Origin: a candidate division FCPU426 bacterium
Lineage (GTDB): Bacteria > Oederibacteriota > Muellerivitia > Muellerivitales > Muellerivitaceae
Direction: 5' to 3'
Assembly: GCA_963771075.1 (NCBI GenBank)
Contig: CAVYSE010000003.1
Coordinates: 128,001-192,000, forward strand
Length of the DNA: 64,000 nt
Below are positions 20,439-59,809 of the stretch, piece by piece. The first letter of the stretch is position 1. The number at the start of each line of letters is the position of its first letter. The notes under the pieces were generated by a model that had not been told where the DNA came from, made no database searches, and saw only the letters and a list, made by a program, of their open reading frames with translations. The translations under genes and the position numbers were made by a program.

Positions 20439-20748
20439 CGGGCTCCTTGTCCAGGGCGACGCCTATTGCGAGCCAACCAGGCGAGAAGTGAGGTTTGGCT
20501 TCTCCGAATTTTAAAACGGCTGGGGCAAGCCGAGGACTGGATCGATGGGTGCCGGGGCGGGCTAATTAAGAGCCCCGGCACTTGGGTCCTGGTTTCTTGC
20601 CAGTTTAAAAGAAAAACGAACAACAAAATGCCTGTCCACCATGATCCATTATTCATTTTGTCCACGACAGGTCCCCGCCATGTTGCATGTGCTTGCGTTT
20701 AGCTACATGGCCCGTTGTGGATAACCAATTCCAGGTTTAAGGCGCGAG

Positions 20749-21199: not shown

Positions 21200-21331
21200 A
21201 AGTCCGGATTATAACATTCTTTCCCGAAAATCATGTTTAGACCCCCTATCCTTTCGTGATCCGAGATGGGTCCCCGCCATGCAGCATGCGCTTGCCCTTA
21301 GCTACATGGCCCGTCGCGGACCATTAACAGC

Positions 21332-23064: not shown

Positions 23065-25041
23065 GCAGAGTAGAGCGCTGGCGCGTATGCCTTAGAGTAC
23101 GGTGGCGAATCCAACCCTTTCGGATTGGGCCTCAGTCCGGCTCTCATCACCACGTTTCCAGCGCCCCCTCATCAAACCGTACGTGACCTTTTCGATCATA
23201 CGGCTTTCCGACAACCTTTCAACCGGCAGCATTCAAGGCAAAAGCTGGAATCCAGTTCAAACCAAGGCGTTTCACTTCCTCGATCGACCATGTTCGTCCT
23301 TCCCAGGCGTACTTATGCCTCCGAAACAAAGTCAGCCTTTCGAGTACGTAAAATTGAAGCTTGGAAAAGTATGGCTGGCTGTCCCCAATTCGGAAATAGT
23401 TGGCCCACCCCCTTAACACCGGGTTCAAAGCCTTCGCTACATCCTCCATTGGAGATAAGAGCCGCTCTCGGCCCGCCGTCATCTGCTTCACTTTCTCGGC
23501 GATTTTCTTCATGGCCTTCCGGCTCGGCCAGCTCAGGCAACAGGTCTTACCCAATCCTACCACCGGCATACCTACTCGAAAGTGGAACCCAAGGAAGTCA
23601 AACCCTTCCTTCCCAGGCCCCATTTCCACCAGCCGTGTCTTTTCGGGGTGCAGTTCAAGCCCTAGTCGTCCCATCAATTCCTTGATGACTTCCAGGCTCT
23701 TTTCCGCATGGGCTTGGCTTCCGCACAACACCACAAAATCGTCGGCGTAGCGCACCAGCCTACCCAGTTTCCTGTGCCTCTTATTCCAAACCTTGTCCAG
23801 CAAGTGAAGGTAAACATTGGATAACAGCGGTGAGATCACCCCGCCTTGCGGTGTCCCTCGGAGAGTCGGCGTAAGCCTTCCTTCCTCAAACACACCCGCC
23901 TTCAGCCACCCTCGGATCAGTTTCAAAACCTTCCGGTCACTGATCCTCTGGCGCACCAGCACCATCAGTTTGTCGTGGTCGATGGAATCGAAATACTTCC
24001 GAATATCTCCATCCACCACCCATCTGTACCCGCCATTGATCCACTTCTTGATCTCCCGGTGGGCCTGCTGGGCTCCGCGTTTTGGCCGAAATCCAAACGA
24101 GCCTTCCAGAAAGTCCGCCTCAAAGATGGGTTCCACCACCTTCCGGCAAGCCGCTTGAACTACCCGATCCCGAATTACCGGGATTCCCAACGGTCTCTTG
24201 CTTCCATCAGGCTTGGGTATTTCCACTCGTCTCACAGGTTTAGGCAGATACTTCCCAGCTTTGAGTTCTTCCTGGATGCCCTTCAGGAATGGAATAATTC
24301 CCACCTTCTCTTCGATCCATTCCAGCGTTTCCCCGTCCACTCCTCCTTGGCCTTTATTAGCCTTCACCTGTTTCCATGCCGCTGTCAGGACATCCCATCG
24401 GGTCATCCTGTCATGCAGTACATGAAATCTCCGGCTTGGGCTCCTCTTGGCCGCTCGGTATAGCGCCCTTTGAAGGGTTCGCGCCTTGTCTTCGGAGTTG
24501 TTGGCCCTTTGGGGCATGCTCCAGCGCCTCCCTTTTGAAGGTTGCTTGGTTGAAGCAGGGGTCCTTCCCTCCAGGTGGTTTTGTTGTCCACCCTTCACAG
24601 GTATTGTGACCCCCTCCGACTTCCTCCCGCCCTTGCCCCTTTTCGGTTTTAGCCTTATAGCGGCAAGTCTTTTGGCGGGTAGGATCTCCCAGGTTGCTTG
24701 CAAAGCCTTTCCAGCATTCCGTTCCCCATACGCCGGAGGACTTGCCCCGCTTGCTCCAGATTCTTCAGCGGGATCGTGGCCTTCGCCGGTAGACACGCGG
24801 CTCGGCATCCTCTTGCACCTTTCGGTGTCCCATTCACGACGCGGCAGGATTCACTTGATGTTGCGGACTGCTAGATTGTTCCCTCACTGAATGAGGTTTA
24901 TGACCCCGTTTCGGGCAGAACCTCTCGGTCCTACGCCGGGGGCTGACTTCCAGGCTCTCTGGCGATTACCTGGTCAGGATTTGGGCTGGCCCTCTTCGGC
25001 CTACTCCCTCACCTGCTGGCTCTACAAACCTTCGCTGGCAC
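23065..25041 (-). mobile_element. Group II intron, family A, copy 1 (about 1977 bp)
   Basis: RT ORF; domain V AAAGCCGTATGATCGAAAAGGTCACGTACGGTTT; domain VI ending CTCTACTCTGC; 5' end GTGCC; boundaries from comparison with copy 2, uncertain by 1-3 nt. Confidence 0.93.
23219..24517 (-). CDS. ltrA: Group II intron reverse transcriptase/maturase, no endonuclease domain
   Basis: RPLGIP, GTPQGGVISPLLSN, RYADD, FDFLGF, LRGWANYF; start at MPQRANN after GGAGG. Confidence 0.95.
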   Translation of the reverse strand: MPQRANNSEDKARTLQRALYRAAKRSPSRRFHVLHDRMTRWDVLTAAWKQVKANKGQGGVDGETLEWIEEKVGIIPFLKGIQEELKAGKYLPKPVRRVEIPKPDGSKRPLGIPVIRDRVVQAACRKVVEPIFEADFLEGSFGFRPKRGAQQAHREIKKWINGGYRWVVDGDIRKYFDSIDHDKLMVLVRQRISDRKVLKLIRGWLKAGVFEEGRLTPTLRGTPQGGVISPLLSNVYLHLLDKVWNKRHRKLGRLVRYADDFVVLCGSQAHAEKSLEVIKELMGRLGLELHPEKTRLVEMGPGKEGFDFLGFHFRVGMPVVGLGKTCCLSWPSRKAMKKIAEKVKQMTAGRERLLSPMEDVAKALNPVLRGWANYFRIGDSQPYFSKLQFYVLERLTLFRRHKYAWEGRTWSIEEVKRLGLNWIPAFALNAAG

Positions 25042-26278
25042 GATGTCCACGATGAGGACCCATCGTGGACAAGGTTTAAATTATAGCCGTTTCATATTTT
25101 TGAAATCCCTTGTAGGGGAAAGCGGGAGGCATTTGGGTTCCAGCTCATCGTGAATTCGTAAATGATTTTCATGGACTTGGTAATGGCGTGGTCCCCAGCC
25201 CCGGGGCCGTCCTTCCCAACTGCCTGAGCAATTTTCCATTCCCGGTTTGCTCGTCCTTGTTCACGCCCAGGCCCCAAAGGTAATCGCCCAGGGGGATTCC
25301 GCCGCAGGTCGAGGGCCTTTTCCAGACCATCGGGTAAAAGCGCAGTTTCACCTCCTCCGACCGCCACACCGGGCCAGATCTTGGTTCTCGGGAGGGATAG
25401 GGGGGCCAAAGCCTTTGGGGTTCTTCCCCCTCGGCCAGGGTTTTCTTGGGGCGACCGGGCTTGAGCCCGGTCCCAGTGCCCAAGTCGGCCAGATGAATGG
25501 CGGCACTCACGGAAATACCCCAAATTCCCTTATTTTGATTTGCGGAGTATCCGCCAATCAAATCCCTTGATTTCGAGATTCAAGAGAGGAAGGAGACCTA
25601 ATGCCTCTCGGATAGATCGCTGAAGCCCTTCCCCCTGCCGCAAAAGAACTGATTTACCAAAATCTTCAAAAAACCCTTAAAAACGATCCCCCGATTCGGG
25701 GGACGAAAAATAAGGGTTTTTTGATAACCGAGTACCATCTGCTGGCTTTGGCTGATCTGGTGGATCCGCTCCAGGTCGAAAAGCCCTTCACCTGGCTCAA
25801 AAGTGGGTTCAGGGTCCAAATCGGTTAAATGGGTTACAGAAGCCTCTGAAATCCCTTTATTTACCATCGTACAATTTGTACGAAGTACCTCCTCGGGAGC
25901 CTCGTTTAAGAGGGTAAGACGCCATAAGCTTTGCTAACTCTTGGTCTAGTCATCCGCAACCGCTTGGAAACCTGATCCAAATTTAAGGTCAACTCGTCCT
26001 TGATCCGGTTCTCGATGGCCTGGTAGGCGGCCCACCATCCCCTATCCCTGTTGATTTTGTCTCAAACTGATAAAAAGGCGTATATTGGATTTCTTGAAGG
26101 GACAGGGGATGAACTATAAAAGTAACAAGCAGTTGGCGGTTGGCAGGTAAGACCTAACACCAACATCCAACACGACCCATCAGCCCCCTGACTGAGGGCG
26201 ATAAAAACCATCGAGACGCCAATCCGCCAAGCCTTTCGATGCGATAAAGCTTACCTGGCGGGAAGGGCTTATATAAAA

Positions 26279-26554: not shown

Positions 26555-26732
26555 AAGTCAACCAAGGATTGGGACCAAGCTTTTTCGGTTTTTTAGGGGG
26601 GGTAGGGTAATGCCACTACGGGTTGTGGACTAGTGTGTTAAGTGTTGGCAGGCCCCTCGGTTTTTGGTGGGGCAGGCTCCGCTGGAAATCCGCTTGTGGA
26701 TGGATTGATTCAACCAACGGGATGGGGATTAA

Positions 26733-27089
26733 TTAAATACGTTCACCTCTGAGGGGATCCAGGTTCCGAATGGTCCTCAGAACCTCGTTACTCGTTATTA
26801 TAAATCGCATCCCGCAATCATCCTCTTTGACCCAAACCACCTTGGCGTATAAATCGAAGGATTTTTCCATTTCCAAAGCTAAATCCACTATGAGAATGTC
26901 GCTTTCTTTAAGAGGAATGGGCGTTTTTAGCTTAAGACCACCCTCGCTGATATTTTGAGCGCGTCCGCGAAAAGGGGTTTTGGCGGTTTGATAGATATTG
27001 AGCGACGGCGAGGGTTGGACGAGATAGATCTGAATGGATTTTAAGTATTTGAACCGTTCATGAAGGCGTTCGTTTTTTGTTTTACTCAT
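26733..27089 (-). CDS. PilZ-domain protein
   Basis: ERLHERF (RxxxR) and NISEGG (D/NxSxxG), AKVVW, GMRF. Confidence 0.8.
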   Translation of the reverse strand: MSKTKNERLHERFKYLKSIQIYLVQPSPSLNIYQTAKTPFRGRAQNISEGGLKLKTPIPLKESDILIVDLALEMEKSFDLYAKVVWVKEDDCGMRFIITSNEVLRTIRNLDPLRGERI

Positions 27090-27534
27090 TCCCGGGTTAC
27101 CTGGCACAGTTTTTTCAAGCGAAAGTGTTGAAAATAGGTTGGCGCTTATTGACCGCAATGGTAGAGGAGGTGTCCAGAGGGTCAGCCCCCTTGATCGACG
27201 GAGGCTTCACTTCCCTGTCCAGATAACCGGGTTCTTTATAGGTTATTTAGTTTTTTGGCGCAATAAACTTTTTTAATGGCTTGGAAGTTCATACAAGAAT
27301 TATGTAAAGGAAATACATATTTGTAGGAGAGCGTAAGACCTTAGGTTGGTTTAGCCTATTTTGTTTTGCGGTTATTCATCCTAACAATGTATTCGGCCTC
27401 GATAGCCCAATGGATTTAAACAGTTCTCGTGCAGCCTGATCGCTTCTGCTTTCTCCCCAAGGGGCCTGCTTCCACTTCTGGGCCCGGCCCTGAGCAGAGC
27501 AAAACTCTTTCGAAGGGCCCCTAACCGTCCTTAG

Positions 27535-27663
27535 CTTAGAGGCTCAACGCCAACCCGCCGAAGTTCCCGAAGTAACCCGCCGACAGGTTCCAATCGGGCC
27601 CGAAAATGAGCTGGAACCCCGCTCCCACACCGTAAAGCATGTGGGCGGGTGGGGTAATGCCAC
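27535..27663 (-). repeat. Direct repeat copy A: tail of a beta-barrel/autotransporter-like gene
   Basis: Aligns with 33616-33774 apart from substitutions and a 30-bp deletion. Confidence 0.85.
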
Positions 27664-33535: not shown

Positions 33536-33615
33536 AACGCGATTCCTGAAACCCAAAAGTCATCCAGTTCCCCAGTTGGATGCATTCGATCAAAGGGGCC
33601 CCCACCCCTACTTGC

Positions 33616-33774
33616 CTTAGAGGCTCAGCGCCACCCCGCCGTTGAAGGCGTTCAGGTTCTGTCCCCCTCCGAAGTTCCCGGAGTAACCCGCCGACAGGTT
33701 CCAATCGGGCCCGAAGATGAGCTGAAACCCCGCCCCCACGCCGTAAAGCATGGGGGCGGGTGGGGTAATGCCAC
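33616..33774 (-). repeat. Direct repeat copy B: tail of a beta-barrel/autotransporter-like gene
   Basis: Minus strand reads MLYGVGAGFQLIFGPDWNLSAGYSGNFGGGQNLNAFNGGVALSL*. Confidence 0.85.
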
Positions 33775-34259
33775 GATGGGGTGAGGACTAAAGTGTTAAA
33801 TGCTGGCCAGGCCCCTCGGTTTCGTTAAAAACATAAGTTAAACTTAACGGCACGTTATTCTTTCAAGTGAATATTTTTCGGTTGTTTAAGGAAATGACTT
33901 GAAAAACATCGGACAGAAATTGAAGCTTGGTGTAAAGATGAAAATATCTGAAAAAATAACCCCGGTGATTAATGAGATGATGAATATGCATCAGAGAAAT
34001 AAGGTTTTAGATAAGACCAAACACAAACCAAGTCCAATTAATCAAATTGGCAATAAGTTTAATCAACACATGTAATCTTTGTCGTTTTGCCCTATCTATC
34101 CAAACATTTCTTATTCTGCAAATCGCGCCGGCTGTTAGAAGTTTTTTTCAAATCCACAATGCTCAAGTCAACATTAGATTTCGGGATATCCCCCTCCCCA
34201 ATGGTTTTCCCCGCCCCACCCGTTAAAATGACCCCTCCATTCCCAAGGAGCCTTCCCTC

Positions 34260-40376: not shown

Positions 40377-40464
40377 AAAGACCTCCTAATTTCTATAAAA
40401 GAAGCATACCTCATCGTACGGATGATGTCCACACACAAGACAAAAATGGTCGTCCACGACGGGT

Positions 40465-41462
40465 AGTTCTGTTCTTTTCTTCATCTTCGGCGTGAACTTC
40501 ACTACCCATTTCCCCCGGCGGTTTATCTCCATCCGGAAGTCAAACCCCAGAAACCCAAAGCTTTCGCCTTTCGTTAAGTCCACTGTCCTCGTTTTGTCCG
40601 TGTTGATTTTCAGGTCAAGTTTAACCAATTCCTCAAGTAGCCTCTGGTAGACCGCCTTCACAAGCCCTTCCCCCTGTGGGTTTCCATCCACGAGGATCAC
40701 CATATCGTCGGCAAACCTCGCATATTCGACAGGGGTGTACATCCCTTGCCGGGTCGCTTCCTTCGCCTTTTCCAGCATCTTGTCCACCTCGTTGAGGTAG
40801 AGATTCGCCAGAAGTGGGGAAACAACTCCGCCTTGGGGAACTCCTCTTTTGCCGCTGGCTTTCAGGATTAGCTTCAGCAATCTCATCACCGTTTTATCCT
40901 CAATCCTCTGCGCTACCTTCTTCAACAGCAGGTCATGCCTTACCGTATCGAAGTACGCCTTCAGATCAAGGTCGATGACTCGGGTTTTCCCCCCGACAAT
41001 TGCTTCGGCTACCCTGTTCACCGCCGCATGAGCAGTCCGCTTGGGCCGGTACCCATAAGACCCGTCTTGAAAATCAGCTTCGAAAATTGGTTCCAGGATG
41101 AGCTTCATCGCTCCCTGGACAACCCTGTCCCGAATGTTGGGTATCCCAAGAGTTCTGACCTTCCCATCTCCCTTGGGTATCTCCTTCTTCCGGTTCCGGG
41201 CCGGTCTATACGTGCCTTGGACTAGTTCACGCTGGATGCTTTCAAGAAACGGCTCTATCCCTGCTTCTTCAATGGCCTCAAATGTCACCCCGTCTATTCC
41301 AGGGGCTCCATTGTTTGACTTCGCCATCTGGTAAGCCTGTTGGAGCGCTTCCATCTTGCAAACATGCGTGTAAAGTCCCCAGAAACGCCAGTTCTTCTCA
41401 GCCTTCGCTTTGACGTATATCTCTCGTCTCAGGTCTTGCAGACTGATGGACGTCTTTTTCAT
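40465..41462 (-). pseudogene. ltrA: Truncated group II intron RT/maturase (RT0-7 present, thumb/X domain lost)
   Basis: SLQDLRREIYVKAKAE, RTLGIP, GVPQGGVVSPLLAN, RFADD, FGFLGFDF; homology stops at KKRTE and the frame reads through into flanking DNA to 40386. Confidence 0.9.
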
Positions 41463-41973
41463 ACCGTCCCTGCCTCCCACTTTTGCCAAGAGATTTCACA
41501 ACAGCAGGGTTACTTCGCTCCACGGGAATTACCCCGCTTCTTAGCTACTTTTAACCCGTCCTACTCCCTCTTGCCTTCGACCGCTTTCCCGCATCGGGTT
41601 ATACGGCCTACCTTTTTCCAAGTATTTCTACCTGGGGCAAGGAGGGTCTCTCCAGTTGCTTGGTATGTCCTTGTCATCATGCCGTGGCTAGCACCCCGCC
41701 AGTGTGTTCCAGCGCATTGGCCATCTGGCCGCTGTTCCATGTTGCCTTCATCCCACGACGGAGGATTCGGCCACTGGGGCTATTGTTTTCGGGGCCACCT
41801 ATGCCTTCACTTTCGTTACGGCCTGACGACTCGCTCACCATCCCGAAGATGGCTTTGTCGATGGGCTTCAGGCATTAAGTTTCCCGCTTGCCTGCCATCC
41901 TAGCTAATGGGTTTTGGCTATTACCCATGCAAGTCTACCTCTTGCTGAACACACCTGCCTTTTCTGGACGCAT
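40465..41973 (-). mobile_element. Group II intron, family B, 3'-truncated, inserted in the spacer of a dyad site
   Basis: 5' end (A)TGCGTCCAGAAAGG with domain I-like motifs and an RT ORF; no domain V/VI; flanked by the two halves of one 26-bp site. Confidence 0.88.
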
Positions 41974-43335: not shown

Positions 43336-45312
43336 GCAGAGTAGAGCGCTGGCGCGTATGCCTTAGAGTACGGTGGCGAATCCAACCCTTTCGGATTGGG
43401 CCTCAGTCCGGCTCTCATCACCACGTTTCCAGCGCCCCCTCATCAAACCGTACGTGACCTTTTCGATCATACGGCTTTCCGACAACCTTTCAACCGGCAG
43501 CATTCAAGGCAAAAGCTGGAATCCAGTTCAAACCAAGGCGTTTCACTTCCTCGATCGACCATGTTCGTCCTTCCCAGGCGTACTTATGCCTCCGAAACAA
43601 AGTCAGCCTTTCGAGTACGTAAAATTGAAGCTTGGAAAAGTATGGCTGGCTGTCCCCAATTCGGAAATAGTTGGCCCACCCCCTTAACACCGGGTTCAAA
43701 GCCTTCGCTACATCCTCCATTGGAGATAAGAGCCGCTCTCGGCCCGCCGTCATCTGCTTCACTTTCTCGGCGATTTTCTTCATGGCCTTCCGGCTCGGCC
43801 AGCTCAGGCAACAGGTCTTACCCAATCCTACCACCGGCATACCTACTCGAAAGTGGAACCCAAGGAAGTCAAACCCTTCCTTCCCAGGCCCCATTTCCAC
43901 CAGCCGTGTCTTTTCGGGGTGCAGTTCAAGCCCTAGTCGTCCCATCAATTCCTTGATGACTTCCAGGCTCTTTTCCGCATGGGCTTGGCTTCCGCACAAC
44001 ACCACAAAATCGTCGGCGTAGCGCACCAGCCTACCCAGTTTCCTGTGCCTCTTATTCCAAACCTTGTCCAGCAAGTGAAGGTAAACATTGGATAACAGCG
44101 GTGAGATCACCCCGCCTTGCGGTGTCCCTCGGAGAGTCGGCGTAAGCCTTCCTTCCTCAAACACACCCGCCTTCAGCCACCCTCGGATCAGTTTCAAAAC
44201 CTTCCGGTCACTGATCCTCTGGCGCACCAGCACCATCAGTTTGTCGTGGTCGATGGAATCGAAATACTTCCGAATATCTCCATCCACCACCCATCTGTAC
44301 CCGCCATTGATCCACTTCTTGATCTCCCGGTGGGCCTGCTGGGCTCCGCGTTTTGGCCGAAATCCAAACGAGCCTTCCAGAAAGTCCGCCTCAAAGATGG
44401 GTTCCACCACCTTCCGGCAAGCCGCTTGAACTACCCGATCCCGAATTACCGGGATTCCCAACGGTCTCTTGCTTCCATCAGGCTTGGGTATTTCCACTCG
44501 TCTCACAGGTTTAGGCAGATACTTCCCAGCTTTGAGTTCTTCCTGGATGCCCTTCAGGAATGGAATAATTCCCACCTTCTCTTCGATCCATTCCAGCGTT
44601 TCCCCGTCCACTCCTCCTTGGCCTTTATTAGCCTTCACCTGTTTCCATGCCGCTGTCAGGACATCCCATCGGGTCATCCTGTCATGCAGTACATGAAATC
44701 TCCGGCTTGGGCTCCTCTTGGCCGCTCGGTATAGCGCCCTTTGAAGGGTTCGCGCCTTGTCTTCGGAGTTGTTGGCCCTTTGGGGCATGCTCCAGCGCCT
44801 CCCTTTTGAAGGTTGCTTGGTTGAAGCAGGGGTCCTTCCCTCCAGGTGGTTTTGTTGTCCACCCTTCACAGGTATTGTGACCCCCTCCGACTTCCTCCCG
44901 CCCTTGCCCCTTTTCGGTTTTAGCCTTATAGCGGCAAGTCTTTTGGCGGGTAGGATCTCCCAGGTTGCTTGCAAAGCCTTTCCAGCATTCCGTTCCCCAT
45001 ACGCCGGAGGACTTTCCCCGCTTGCTCCAGATTCTTCAGCGGGATCGTGGCCTTCGCCGGTAGACACGCGGCTCGGCATCCTCTTGCACCTTTCGGTGTC
45101 CCATTCACGACGCGGCAGGATTCACTTGATGTTGCGGACTGCTAGATTGTTCCCTCACTGAATGAGGTTTATGACCCCGTTTCGGGCAGAACCTCTCGGT
45201 CCTACGCCGGGGGCTGACTTCCAGGCTCTCTGGCGATTACCTGGTCAGGATTTGGGCTGGCCCTCTTCGGCCTACTCCCTCACCTGCTGGCTCTACAAAC
45301 CTTCGCTGGCAC
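43336..45312 (-). mobile_element. Group II intron, family A, copy 2
   Basis: Matches 23065-25041; only one substitution seen (45015 T vs 24744 G). Confidence 0.93.
43490..44788 (-). CDS. ltrA: Group II intron reverse transcriptase/maturase
   Basis: Identical protein to 23219-24517. Confidence 0.95.
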   Translation of the reverse strand: MPQRANNSEDKARTLQRALYRAAKRSPSRRFHVLHDRMTRWDVLTAAWKQVKANKGQGGVDGETLEWIEEKVGIIPFLKGIQEELKAGKYLPKPVRRVEIPKPDGSKRPLGIPVIRDRVVQAACRKVVEPIFEADFLEGSFGFRPKRGAQQAHREIKKWINGGYRWVVDGDIRKYFDSIDHDKLMVLVRQRISDRKVLKLIRGWLKAGVFEEGRLTPTLRGTPQGGVISPLLSNVYLHLLDKVWNKRHRKLGRLVRYADDFVVLCGSQAHAEKSLEVIKELMGRLGLELHPEKTRLVEMGPGKEGFDFLGFHFRVGMPVVGLGKTCCLSWPSRKAMKKIAEKVKQMTAGRERLLSPMEDVAKALNPVLRGWANYFRIGDSQPYFSKLQFYVLERLTLFRRHKYAWEGRTWSIEEVKRLGLNWIPAFALNAAG

Positions 45313-45386
45313 GATGTCCACGAAGGGTCCCCGTTGTGGACGGCAAATTCACTTCAAAATAGTAATAGTGGCCTGACACCTTTTTC

Positions 45387-53778: not shown

Positions 53779-55945
53779 CGTCATCGTAGAGCCGAATGAA
53801 ACGTCCCCGCAAAAGCGTTTCCCGCTACCCCGCCGATCGATTCATCCCCGTGTACGCGGGGAACACACCCCCTCCTGGAAAGCGTACTGCGTGACCATCG
53901 GTTCATCCCCGCGTACGCGGGGAACGTTCAACATCTAAAACAATTTGCTCAACCCAGTCCGGTTCATCCCCGCGTACGCGGGGAACGTTGGCCTGTGCAA
54001 TTGGGGGAAAATGTATCCCTCGGTTCATCCCCGCGTACGCGGGGAACGTAAGCCAAGTTCAGGGCTTTTGTTTTACGGGCACGGTTCATCCCCGCGTACG
54101 CGGGGAACGTGGTCCGGGGACAACCTTCTTTTACGCACAAATCGGTTCATCCCCGCGTACGCGGGGAACGTTTAATTAATTAACCTAACTTTCTCTAAAA
54201 ACCCGGTTCATCCCCGCGTACGCGGGGAACGTTTGCATAGGCCAAAGCCTAAGACTGAAAAGACCGGTTCATCCCCGCGTACGCGGGGAACGTAAGGCCT
54301 TCATCCAGACCAACCCGGGTTGGGGCGGTTCATCCCCGCGTACGCGGGGAACGTAAAGGCATTTGATTGCGCGGGAAATCAATATACGGTTCATCCCCGC
54401 GTACGCGGGGAACGTCATTTCTTCTAAATCGGACAACGGTAAACCATCGGTTCATCCCCGCGTACGCGGGGAACGTTACATCCTCCCGTTAACAACGTAT
54501 TCAAGAGCCGGTTCATCCCCGCGTACGCGGGGAACGTCTAGTAATGAGGCATTAAATGAATTGGTTTTGCGGTTCATCCCCGCGTACGCGGGGAACGTTA
54601 CAATGTGGCAACCGCGGCCTCGATTACCGGCGGTTCATCCCCGCGTACGCGGGGAACGTCGATACTAACTCATGCAAATACCGGCAATCACCGGTTCATC
54701 CCCGCGTACGCGGGGAACGTACTGATTCTGAAATTCCTGTATCGTCTATTTCCGGTTCATCCCCGCGTACGCGGGGAACGTGATGCTTTGGCTGGCCGGA
54801 ACAACTGCTGGACCGGTTCATCCCCGCGTACGCGGGGAACGTAAAAGAGAGAGTTAACCGAAACGTTTTCCATCCGGTTCATCCCCGCGTACGCGGGGAA
54901 CGTAGTCAAGCGCACTCCGAACCGCCGCTCGGTTTCGGTTCATCCCCGCGTACGCGGGGAACGTTGTGAGGGCCGGCGAAAATAGGCCCGCTAAAGCGGT
55001 TCATCCCCGCGTACGCGGGGAACGTGACGCTCAATTTTTCCTAGACAACTTGGATTCCGGTTCATCCCCGCGTACGCGGGGAACGTGTTTTAGCTAAGTC
55101 TGATTTAACATCTTATGCCGGTTCATCCCCGCGTACGCGGGGAACGTGTCTAGGACAAATTGAGGCATCATAATCGCTCACGGTTCATCCCCGCGTACGC
55201 GGGGAACGTTCAGTGGACTCCACCTTGTGCTCCACGGACGCGCGGTTCATCCCCGCGTACGCGGGGAACGTTTGCTGAGTATCGTCTCGATCTCTGTCAC
55301 GAGCGGTTCATCCCCGCGTACGCGGGGAACGCTATCCTTGAGAATTGAGGCGAGGCATCTTGTATCCGGTTCATCCCCGCGTACGCGGGGAACGTTGGGG
55401 TATGCTAGGGTATGACAATTAATCTCGGTTCATCCCCGCGTACGCGGGGAACGTTAGACCCTTTTGAATTCCGACCGGAAAAATTCCGGTTCATCCCCGC
55501 GTACGCGGGGAACGTGACTGATACCCACAAGTTTTATGGCGAAGGACCGGTTCATCCCCGCGTACGCGGGGAACGTCGGTGTTCACACGTTGCAGCTGGA
55601 GCGCTGGACGGTTCATCCCCGCGTACGCGGGGAACGTTCCAATCGACTTTGCCAATTCGCAAATACTTCTCGGTTCATCCCCGCGTACGCGGGGAACGTC
55701 TGTCATTCGGCCATTATGCGTACCATCGAGTCGGTTCATCCCCGCGTACGCGGGGAACGTTTGCCTTGGTTTTGGTGCCATTATCGGCCTACCCGGTTCA
55801 TCCCCGCGTACGCGGGGAACGTTTCACCATCTTCTGCTGGGCCTCGTCCTTGGCCGGTTCATCCCCGCGTACGCGGGGAACGTTAGAAACTCTCTCCCTT
55901 AAATTTAACTACCCCGGTTCATCCCCGCGTACGCGGGGAACGTAA

Positions 55946-57000
55946 CCCGAGTTCCATAAGTAAGTGCAACACTCAGTGCAAGAAGAAAGCCGCCTCCATA
56001 GGATAGGCGGCCATGAAAAAAAACTACAAGCATTTAAGCGTTGAAGAAAGAGATCACTTGGCCGTTTTGAAGGGGAAAGGTCATGGGGTCCGGGATATCG
56101 CCAGAATCCTCAAGCGTTCCCCATCCACCATCTCCCGCGAACTCAAGCGCAACGCCCCAACCATCCGCACGGGTTATTACTTAGCCCACCGTGCCCACCT
56201 ACGATATATCGTCCGTAACCAGCAACGGGCACGCCGTTTACGCCTGAAAACAAAGCGAATTCGTGCCTACGTCCGCCGTCAATTGAAACGAGGTTGGTCT
56301 CCTGAACTCATTTCGGGTCGTTGGAGCTGCCTACATCCCAAGCAAACCATTGGCCCCGAAGCCATCTACCAGTGGATTTACATTGAGGCCACTGATTTGA
56401 TCTCTTACCTCGTTCGACACCACCGGCAACGTCTCTCTTTCGGCCACAGCCGTAAGCACGCCAAAAACCATATTCCAGGCCGTGTTTCCATCGACAAAAG
56501 GCCCAAGGCCGTCAACCAACGCAAGCAGTTCGGCCATTGGGAAACCGACACCATGGTCTCCCGTGAAAGCAAAGTCGCCATGCGGGCTCTCGTCGAACGT
56601 CAAAGCCGTTTTTCCAAGTTGGGAAAGCTCAAACGAAAAACAGCTGCCCAAATGAGTCACAGCCTCAATCGTACTTTAGGCCGCTTCCCTCAAGAAGCTC
56701 GTCTGAGTTTGACCTACGACAATGGAACCGAAAACACCAACCACCTGGAAACCAACCGCGTGCTTGGTACAAAATCCTTTTTCGGTGCGCCTTTCCACAG
56801 TTGGGAAAAAGGCACTGTAGAAAATACCATTGGTCTTGTTCGCCGTTATTTGCCCAAAAAGACTGACCTTGCTAAAGTATCTCTCAAAGAATTCAAAGCC
56901 ATCGAAAGATGGCTCAATCACAGGCCCAGAAAATGTTTGGGTTTTAAAACTCCGGCGGAAGTCTTCCGGCGAAGTGTTGCACTTACTCCGTGAATTCAGC
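55946..57000 (+). mobile_element. IS30-family insertion sequence within the CRISPR array
   Basis: Imperfect ~27-bp terminal IRs sharing AGTAAGTGCAACACT; TAA(C) target duplication. Confidence 0.93.
56013..56993 (+). CDS. IS30-family transposase
   Basis: YKHLSVEER, STISRELKRN, GHWETDT, TYDNGTE, WEKGTVEN, LNHRPRKCLG. Confidence 0.96.
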   Translation: MKKNYKHLSVEERDHLAVLKGKGHGVRDIARILKRSPSTISRELKRNAPTIRTGYYLAHRAHLRYIVRNQQRARRLRLKTKRIRAYVRRQLKRGWSPELISGRWSCLHPKQTIGPEAIYQWIYIEATDLISYLVRHHRQRLSFGHSRKHAKNHIPGRVSIDKRPKAVNQRKQFGHWETDTMVSRESKVAMRALVERQSRFSKLGKLKRKTAAQMSHSLNRTLGRFPQEARLSLTYDNGTENTNHLETNRVLGTKSFFGAPFHSWEKGTVENTIGLVRRYLPKKTDLAKVSLKEFKAIERWLNHRPRKCLGFKTPAEVFRRSVALTP

Positions 57001-57617
57001 TAACTTCACCTGAGCGATACTGATTTTTTTAAACGGTTCATCCCCGCGTACGCGGGGAACGTTCAGGGGTGACGTTTCCGGAATCAGGGTGACCGGTTCA
57101 TCCCCGCGTACGCGGGGAACGTTCGGTGATCGCCCAATTTCACCATTCCGCCTTCGGTTCATCCCCGCGTACGCGGGGAACGTAGGTCTTATCCTCCTTT
57201 CCCTTGACTCTCTTTCGGTTCATCCCCGCGTACGCGGGGAACGTAGACCAAGATTGAGCCACACCTTCTTCCTAGCCCGGTTCATCCCCGCGTACGCGGG
57301 GAACGCTGGCATGGCAATACGGAAATGGGGACAGATCAAATCGGTTCATCCCCGCGTACGCGGGGAACGTTGTCACACAGGCGGGAGCGGCGACGACATC
57401 TCCGGTTCATCCCCGCGTACGCGGGGAACGTTTCTTCTGTTTCGGCATGAGCAGGTTCCTCCTCGGTTCATCCCCGCGTACGCGGGGAACGTGGCTTGTA
57501 ACTGATTCATTAGTCACGACCTCCCGGTTCATCCCCGCGTACGCGGGGAACGTACTTATAAACGGCCATTTAACGCGTCATTTTTCCGTCAAACGGCTCC
57601 GTAGCCCTAAAAACGCC

Positions 57618-59315: not shown

Positions 59316-59337
59316 ACACCCACCATCCTTTCACCTT

Positions 59338-59809
59338 CTCACGTCCAATTTTAGCCGTGTTGTCGCTTTAATTGGACGCGAGGCAGTTTAAATGTCGTTT
59401 AAACGAGCCTTACATTCCCAAGACAAAACAGACCTTTGTCTTATTAGAAAAAATCCAATGTTTTCCGGCCCAGGTTATCCATCCGTCACGTCCAATTTTA
59501 GCCGCGTTACAGTTTTAATTGGACGCGAGACGCGTTTATCAACCCCTACCGTTCCATACGACTCCATCCCTTTGCCATCTCACGTCCAATTAATACCGCA
59601 TTGCGGACAAAATTGGACGCGAGACACCCTGCATAAACCATCTCAAACACCCAACTTGTGCAAGAGGCCCTTGCACAATTGACCGGTTGAGCTAAGCCGA
59701 AACAAAAACCCACATATACTTGAGATTCCGGGGTAAAAACCCCTCATGTCCGGGAAAGCGGCGGATAAACTTGCCAATTAATTCCGAAATACGGAAATAA
59801 TTGGCAAGT
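59338..59809. repeat. Four palindromic boxes CCAATT-N4-CCG-N5-CGG-N4-AATTGG
   Basis: Copies at 59338-59382, 59485-59529, 59579-59623, 59769-59809, all with 19 nt between CCAATT and AATTGG; inner CGG imperfect in the first two. Confidence 0.85.

Follow-up and report, generated by a model that had tools for sequence, protein, structure and literature searches.

The window analyzed here, a 64,000-nt stretch from a candidate division FCPU426 bacterium of the family Muellerivitaceae (contig CAVYSE010000003.1; G000:C3:128001-192000, where G000 is the source genome), carries two copies of a group II intron, hereafter lineage A, together with a truncated intron of a second lineage, lineage B. Both lineage A copies adjoin a cassette-flanking 28-bp dyad consisting of two 11-nt arms and a 6-nt spacer. 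This dyad is repeated across the source genome (97 occurrences at six or fewer mismatches vs. 0 in the reversed genome), and in the window its copies flank small genes, including those encoding PIN, GNAT, DUF433, and DUF5615 proteins.

Intron copies and boundaries

The two copies differ at one of 1,979 intron positions (24744), and both flanks of copy 1 are unrelated to those of copy 2. An earlier note on this DNA had described near-identical minus-strand copies with unrelated downstream flanks and had taken them for independent recent insertions; both descriptions hold, and independent recent insertion is supported. Rfam models recognized the domain I motif and domain V/VI in both copies, with an RF00029 score of 43.4 bits (cut-off 40). 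The element has the features of a mobile group II intron, namely a domain V triad, a bulged A in domain VI, an intact reverse transcriptase (RT) gene in domain IV, and pairing between exon-binding sequences (EBS) and intron-binding sequences (IBS). The encoded RT scored 422.9 bits against TIGR04416 (cut-off 300), with RVT_1 and GIIM as its only Pfam domains, and in the alignment alpha and alpha' covary, from CCAGA/UCUGG to CCUG/CAGG and CCCG/CGGG (Table 1).

Across the source genome there are 10 intact RT genes, all identical, one truncated RT (42% identical), and 13 5' ends and 13 3' ends of lineage A; a 14th junction, on contig C8, belongs to a sibling intron whose first base is C. At 13/13 5' ends the dyad and the dinucleotide TC precede GTGCC, while 13/13 3' ends read CTCTACTCTGC, then A. 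Lineage A accounts for a dozen or more insertions precisely at the dyad border. Its junctions occur by pattern in 8 of 31 family genomes (G023 by pattern alone), and in a metagenome scan with a 16-nt junction, where matches were mostly due to chance, dyad and intron were truly joined in 3 of 120 stretches.

The insertion point had previously been placed 3 nt beyond the dyad, with an intron reading GTGCC...GC and an end coordinate of 25070. The GC end followed by A was borne out, whereas the other boundary moves. From sequence comparison, we place the intron at 25043..23065, with termini UCGUG...GC and insertion 0 nt beyond the last base of the dyad; an end at 25070 takes in most of the dyad itself (25044-25071). 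The dinucleotide TC is assigned to the intron because empty arm ends, siblings, empty alleles, epsilon', and the domain I stem agree. Among 182 empty arm ends, TC follows in 2, TCA in 0, and A in 106. Siblings inserted at the same nucleotide in other genomes start with GCGUG (L141, L152, L154, L178, L179, L146, and L158; ribozyme 95% identical for L178/L179) or GUGUG (L180). Empty alleles in the source genome read GGACA↓A (arrow, insertion point) both for an intron starting with U (L088; flank identity 90%) and for one starting with G (L121; 96% over 48 nt); within the source genome, none was found for its own lineage A copies. The epsilon' bulge changes along with nucleotides 3-4, reading AC when these are GU and matching a GC pair of nucleotides with GC (L085 and L001), and only in the UCGUG register does the basal domain I stem begin at nucleotide 6. 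The earlier boundaries, a 5' exon ending GGACATC and an intron starting GUGCC, draw on the constant TC before GTGCC in all 13 copies and on the resemblance of GUGCC to GUGYG, yet TC is this rare after empty arm ends, siblings carry GC or GT in its place, the empty alleles lack it, and an AC epsilon' requires G3-U4, so that we give them almost no credence. Registers taking the last A of the arm, or the next A, as an intron base were also disfavored; GGACR↓A is preferred because of a GGACG target at C5:87693, a flank score of 30.8 versus 16.8 bits, the G flank of L082, and the empty alleles.

Table 1. Coordinates of intron, target, and neighboring intron features in the window
Feature	Position	Strand	Basis or remarks
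Lineage A group II intron, copy 1	23065..25043	-	1,979 nt, 5' UCGUG ... CUCUGC 3'; Rfam RF02003 and RF00029 matches
Lineage A intron, copy 2	43336..45314	-	Pairwise comparison, genome-wide end listing
28-bp dyad (11-6-11), 5' exon of copy 1, left intact by insertion	25044..25071	.	
Dyad, 5' exon of copy 2, spacer in other orientation	45315..45342	.	
IBS1 GTGGACA, last 7 nt of dyad arm	25044..25050	-	Pairs with EBS1
Predicted IBS2 (-13 to -9), CTCAT here, CCCAT in most copies	25052..25056	-	Counts, covariation
IBS3, A, first base of 3' exon	23064	-	A after 13/13 3' ends; empty alleles
5' terminus U1-C2-G3-U4-G5	25039..25043	-	Siblings, empty arm ends, alignment
Strand CCAG (nt 6-9) of basal domain I stem, predicted partner CUGG 24692-24689	25035..25038	-	Alignment
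Alpha (CCAGA)	24958..24962	-	Compensatory changes with alpha'
Epsilon' (AC), pairs with G3-U4	24908..24909	-	GC with G3C4 in L085/L001
Predicted EBS2 region AUGGGAC	24827..24833	-	Covaries with exon -16..-9 in L083, L084, L085, L122, L179
EBS1 UGUCUAC, after G at 24796 (likely delta)	24789..24795	-	Covariation, alignment
Alpha' (UCUGG) in terminal loop, IIE/IIF feature	24756..24760	-	Alignment; PMC3753933
Predicted EBS3, U	24728	-	Covaries with first 3' exon base: U/A here, G/C in L085, A/T in L001
RT/maturase open reading frame (ORF), 432 aa, YADD, without endonuclease domain	23219..24517	-	Pfam RVT_1 and GIIM; TIGR04416
Domain V, AGC triad 23205-23203, 5-nt GAAAA loop	23175..23207	-	RF00029, fold
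Long domain VI, bulged branch A at 23071 (-7)	23068..23170	-	Fold, z -3.2
3' terminus GC (penultimate G at 23066)	23065..23066	-	Genome-wide ends, sibling comparison
Truncated lineage B (g2, FADD) intron	40462..41973	-	Between dyad left arm 41987-41977 and right arm 40461-40451

Target recognition

We consider it likely, with a probability of about 0.85, that the intron came to lie exactly after the last dyad base by retrohoming, its RNA being predicted to pair with the target through a 7-nt EBS1, an EBS2 of about 5 nt, and a single-nucleotide EBS3. EBS1 forms the last 7 nt of a 9-nt loop and pairs with GTRGRCR. The earlier note had paired GUGUCU of this loop (24796-24791) with GGACAT; the stem-loop exists and dyad targeting through it is supported, but that pairing was off by one, UGUCUAC (24795-24789) facing GTGGACA. 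Since U residues in EBS1 allow G-U wobble, variant targets are accommodated, namely AGAC (two copies), GGACG (one), and GGGCA (L083, L157, and L174). Covariation of EBS2, EBS3, and alpha was read from an alignment of 13 variants, in which EBS2 and its target change from AUGGG/CCCAT here to AAGGG/CCCTT (L179), ACACC/GGTGT (L083), GAGAGG/CCTCTC (L084), AUGUGC/GCACAT (L085), and GUGUC/GACAC (L122). IBS1 and IBS3 together occur at 1,174 places in the source genome, and at 64 once IBS2 is added.

Relatives with a changed EBS1 were found at matching non-dyad targets (L084, 73%; L122/L123, 68%; L085, 59%); L084 and L122 also have empty alleles. The dyad preference appears to lie in a few loop bases rather than in a fixed clade trait, because relatives at 68 to 73% RT identity with a changed EBS1 use other targets. 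L084 homes to a different repeated site (G000:C7:100378, C7:111055, and C18:218401), and phage-type integrase genes are found some 2 kb from two of its empty alleles.

Covarying EBS1, EBS2, and EBS3 point to sequence-based homing and not to hairpin reading of the IIC type. The IIC-attC-like mechanism implied by the earlier note would have the intron recognize the palindrome in folded form, whether a single-stranded hairpin or a cruciform, while EBS1 set no more than the final bases. Insertion directly 3' of a perfect hairpin fits such reading, as do the 10 of 11 occupied dyads that fold at -4.6 kcal/mol or better, and a hairpin role has been speculated for UHB.I2, an IIB1 intron lying directly after attC (PMC7923331). 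However, IBS1 lies within the stem, so the hairpin must melt before pairing, and EBS2, which IIC introns lack, covaries with the target. Insertions are also found at right arms with neither palindrome nor left arm (L163, L174, and L154) and at a C9 dyad that folds at only -1.3 kcal/mol, although these could be post-insertion changes. We regard hairpin reading as unlikely.

Copies might instead have spread as DNA, through a cassette recombinase or by duplication, given that the intron adjoins a presumed recombination site and that two 3' fragments (C8 and C11) share a duplicated flank, the only 3' flank to recur in the source genome. Against this, the 3' flanks of the 11 complete elements all differ, each beginning exactly where the intron stops, insertion is precise as judged from empty alleles, and both spacer orientations are used; DNA spread is largely refuted and very improbable.

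In retrohoming, the intron would be transcribed by read-through and spliced as a lariat from A23071 with the help of the maturase; its RNA would then reverse splice into single-stranded target DNA, and priming would take place at the replication fork. With about 100 dyads offering two ends each, an ordinary homing intron has dozens of intergenic targets, and 57 suitable dyad ends remain empty in the source genome. Compared with these, one spacer orientation was favored (8/12 copies vs. 15/57 empty ends, p 0.015), as was the G-rich strand (10/12 vs. 17/57, Fisher p 0.0009), with both p values overstating significance because the sites are clustered and not independent. A bias toward the G-rich strand is as expected for homing on the lagging-strand template, as in RmInt1 (PMC8914252). 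Insertion keeps the 28-bp core intact, and the intron would therefore travel with the downstream cassette.

Several points weigh against retrohoming at this exact nucleotide. Six of eight loci homologous to that of copy 1 have an empty dyad near the expected place, but at 77 to 83% identity, which does not fix the nucleotide, and none of the seven loci homologous to that of copy 2 has a dyad. The EBS2 register varies among variants, the L124/L157 group pairs only in part, and IIE/IIF introns can splice in vitro without EBS2 (PMC3753933). The first base of the 3' exon is G in one G027 copy (L082), and the strand bias cannot be separated from clustering and gene orientation. Most occupied dyads can fold as stable DNA hairpins (-4.6 to -14.4 kcal/mol in 10/11), which is awkward for a fork-dependent route because folding would hide IBS1 and IBS2 in single-stranded DNA. 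Finally, both splice sites, splicing, and branch use are themselves predictions from sequence.

Class and terminal base pair

To classify the RT, reference labels were taken from Tables S1 and S2 of PMC3552965, leaving out Ge.ur.I1, Pe.th.I2, and So.us.I2, while class C was represented by one integron intron (L310), recognized by its CGC triad and integron position. A quick tree comprised 69 rows and a careful one (LG+G4) 26 of these picked as representatives. Lineage A fell in a six-member family-level clade (100/100) inside a weakly supported assemblage of F-like and unclassified introns, class F itself being unsupported as a clade (PMC3552965). Its closest labeled reference was the unclassified Rh.sp.I1 (47.5%), no strong-support grouping with labeled g1, g2, or g3 references was recovered, and its motif is YADD, not the FADD of g2. 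The tree separates lineage A from class C (37.7% identity to the integron reference, separate clade), although the approximately unbiased (AU) test rejected their grouping only marginally (p = 0.041, one integron reference), and gives no strong placement beyond the F-like assemblage. Despite the marginal AU result, lineage A is read as an endonuclease-minus, class F-like group II intron and not IIC, because the triad, EBS2, and RNA shape agree. The non-IIC claim of the earlier note thus stands, as does the AGC triad on which it drew (CGC in L310), joined by a 7-nt EBS1 with EBS2 and an RT outside class C. Lineage A shares with IIE and IIF an alpha' at the end of a stem-loop and a 5-nt domain V loop and also has a long domain VI, all three being IIF features and the first two shared with IIE (PMC3753933). 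Introns of a broad F-like sister group (L003, L005-L010, L012, L013, and many GTDB loci) end ...CUACCAAU, then G; in many phyla they seem to occupy start codons.

The ends UCGUG...GC depart from the consensus GUGYG...AY at nucleotides 1-2 and at the penultimate base, while nucleotides 3-5 fit. The first and penultimate intron bases make a non-Watson-Crick pair. Our survey of this pair comprised 50 rows, of which 2 were false matches, 16 lacked a 3' end, and 32 had both ends; a Leptospira relative with a GC end, its 5' end not located, was left out of the count. U1 occurred with a GC end in 25/32 elements and G1 with an AC end in 7/32, with no exceptions, although these counts represent about 7 distinct U1 and 5 distinct G1 variants and are not independent. 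The odd ends thus read as a compensated pair, with U1 matched by a penultimate G and G1 by a penultimate A, in which U1-G(n-1) would stand in for the usual G1-A(n-1) contact required in the second splicing step. Because both states are present in both subclades of lineage A, the switch has happened more than once or has spread by recombination. A first-penultimate U-G is listed for TeI4h in Table 1A of PMC8283771, which also gives it as the compensatory mutation of Chanfreau and Jacquier 1993, UHB.I2 ends UUGCG...GU (PMC7923331), and a penultimate G in RmInt1 impairs the second splicing step (PMC4238363). U-G ends are therefore a known alternative, here in a near-isogenic natural pair.

The dyad, its other occupants, and precedents

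Two further intron lineages use the same dyad. Lineage B (FADD; RT 39 to 42% identical to that of lineage A; sister to g2 B.th.I3, 100/100) inserts after dyad nucleotide 11, with 14 dyad junctions and 2 at a non-dyad site in 6/31 genomes; its EBS1 has the same loop geometry as that of lineage A, and insertion falls right after the 7 nt matched. The window copy has three extra bases at its 5' junction and an EBS1 loop matching the dyad left arm. At 40451-40470 this remnant ends where a dyad right arm is fused to RT coding sequence, an arrangement suggestive of crossover at an intron-internal pseudo-site. Lineage C (RT 46%) inserts after nucleotide 19 and was found twice, in one genome only (L107 and L137), while lineages A and B occur together in single dyads (L126, L131, and L136). 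Monophyly of A, B, and C was rejected (p 4e-11), as was a clade of the dyad-targeting lineage A members alone (p 4e-10), and each lineage has close relatives or neighbors at other targets; dyad use has therefore been gained or lost several times. Two unrelated lineages would have reached the dyad independently at these other positions, and the dyad appears to be a repeatedly exploited landing pad. Of the "convergent specialist" seen by the earlier note, the convergence stands, with three lineages, whereas the specialism is limited: 13/13 5' ends in the source genome follow a dyad, but the relatives described above use other targets.

ORF-less derivatives of lineage A also occur, including a 798-nt element in the source genome (C2:58050-57253) with 13 matching 5' regions in G027 (L169-L177). 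These keep the ribozyme without the RT, and nine distinct G027 copies are identical over 800 nt. By analogy with ORF-less TeI3 introns, which are mobilized in trans (PMC2882425), they are likely mobilized in trans as well. Three full-length close relatives in G027 are interrupted by a roughly 1.5-kb insertion sequence (IS)-like insertion, and in L088 (G021:C42) a second intron is nested within an ORF-less lineage A element.

The dyad is present in 25/30 same-family genomes, 1/1 same-order genome, and 0/29 other phylum members, with 0 matches in viral contigs. In some spacers a conserved 34-nt hairpin-like insert splits the arms (window 20661-20721 and 21260-21320; 13 places in the source genome), a fourth kind of element at the dyad. 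The 11-6-11 geometry fits that of dif. A candidate enzyme is a single-copy Xer-like tyrosine recombinase of 345 aa (L318; G000:C6:114198-115235), 55 to 75% identical across the order, which fell below all NCBIfam Xer cut-offs and matched the integron-integrase model far below its cut-off. Its gene occurs in 29/30 family genomes and one order member vs. 0/29 others (E 1e-40), a range that matches that of the dyad, though any order-specific gene would; in G019 (97% complete) the gene is present and no dyad was found at three mismatches. GC skew and FtsK-orienting polar sequence (KOPS)-like motifs located no terminus or dif, and no syntenic terminus site was found. A 289-residue serine recombinase frame with Resolvase and Recombinase domains but without the C-terminal part is encoded at G000:C8:79966-80835, with fragments at C6, C8, and C28; at four loci the truncated gene ends just before a dyad half-site, with different sequence beyond at each. 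As the dyad enzyme it is disfavored, PF07508 being found in only 13/31 family genomes and not in the dyad-rich G002, G003, G008, G018, and G025.

A wider picture is possible but doubtful. The dyad would be the dif-type site on which the only Xer-like recombinase of this order acts, co-opted to delimit cassettes as in an integron, and a niche shared by retroelements that three intron lineages divide by nucleotide. Lineage A would have evolved to insert at its border, which would leave the site active and let cassette shuffling, excision, and transfer carry the intron along, and the terminal pair would flip between G-A and U-G among near-identical siblings.

Elsewhere in the window we noted a CRISPR array at 53837-57500 (61-nt period, more than 40 repeats) with a 1-kb insert with inverted ends at 55942-57004, three repeats of 63 nt containing inverted arms (TCACGTCCAATT ... 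AATTGGACGCGAG) at 59323-59626, and duplicated segments of 46 to 110 nt near PilZ and response regulator genes (26596-27663 and 33596-33814).

Among known systems, lineage A resembles IIC-attC introns of the S.ma.I2 type (PMC7923331, PMC4424553) in being endonuclease-minus and in lying at a palindrome that separates toxin-antitoxin-rich cassettes. It differs in its triad (AGC vs. CGC), in a 7-nt EBS1 with EBS2 in place of 3-4 bp plus a hairpin, and in targeting an 11-6-11 dyad instead of the attC bottom strand; unlike the antisense placement of IIC-attC introns, 7/11 copies are co-oriented with the next gene (crude ORF calling). UHB.I2 (IIB1/CL1; PMC7923331) is likewise a non-IIC intron directly after a cassette site, with U1 and a penultimate G, but it is a single-copy CL1 intron with no evidence of repeated homing in that source, whereas here there are a dozen copies per genome, three lineages, and a non-attC site. 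Class F/IIF introns (PMC3552965, PMC3753933) share an RT-X protein of about 430 aa, a length of about 1,980 nt, the alpha' terminal loop, the 5-nt domain V loop, and the long domain VI. TeI4h/TeI3 of Thermosynechococcus elongatus (PMC8283771, PMC2882425) share the U-G pair, ORF-less derivatives, and divergence by EBS change; TeI introns are IIB1/CL1 with an endonuclease and many unrelated targets, in contrast to the one repeated host site of lineage A. RmInt1 (class D) also homes endonuclease-minus to a repeated element (an IS there) and has a non-consensus penultimate base, but the class D reference RT is 34% identical to that of lineage A, and the target here is a cassette site. Known specificities comprise homing sites, terminators, and attC (PMC4424553), to which start and stop codons have been added (PMC12584367). 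In the literature searched, which covered few subscription papers, homing of group II introns to a cassette palindrome other than attC was not described. Each part has precedent, but within that literature neither the division of one site among three lineages nor the switch of the terminal pair between siblings does.

Siblings with 95% identical ribozymes and the same target, differing in G1-A versus U1-G, offer a natural test set for the first-penultimate contact. That introns target it repeatedly is independent evidence that the dyad is a functional site, probably single-stranded at times. Hairpin-reading class C introns are not the only colonizers of cassette sites, EBS-IBS homing having probably reached another cassette site at least three times, and this favors the view that retroelements find a general safe haven in repeated recombination sites.

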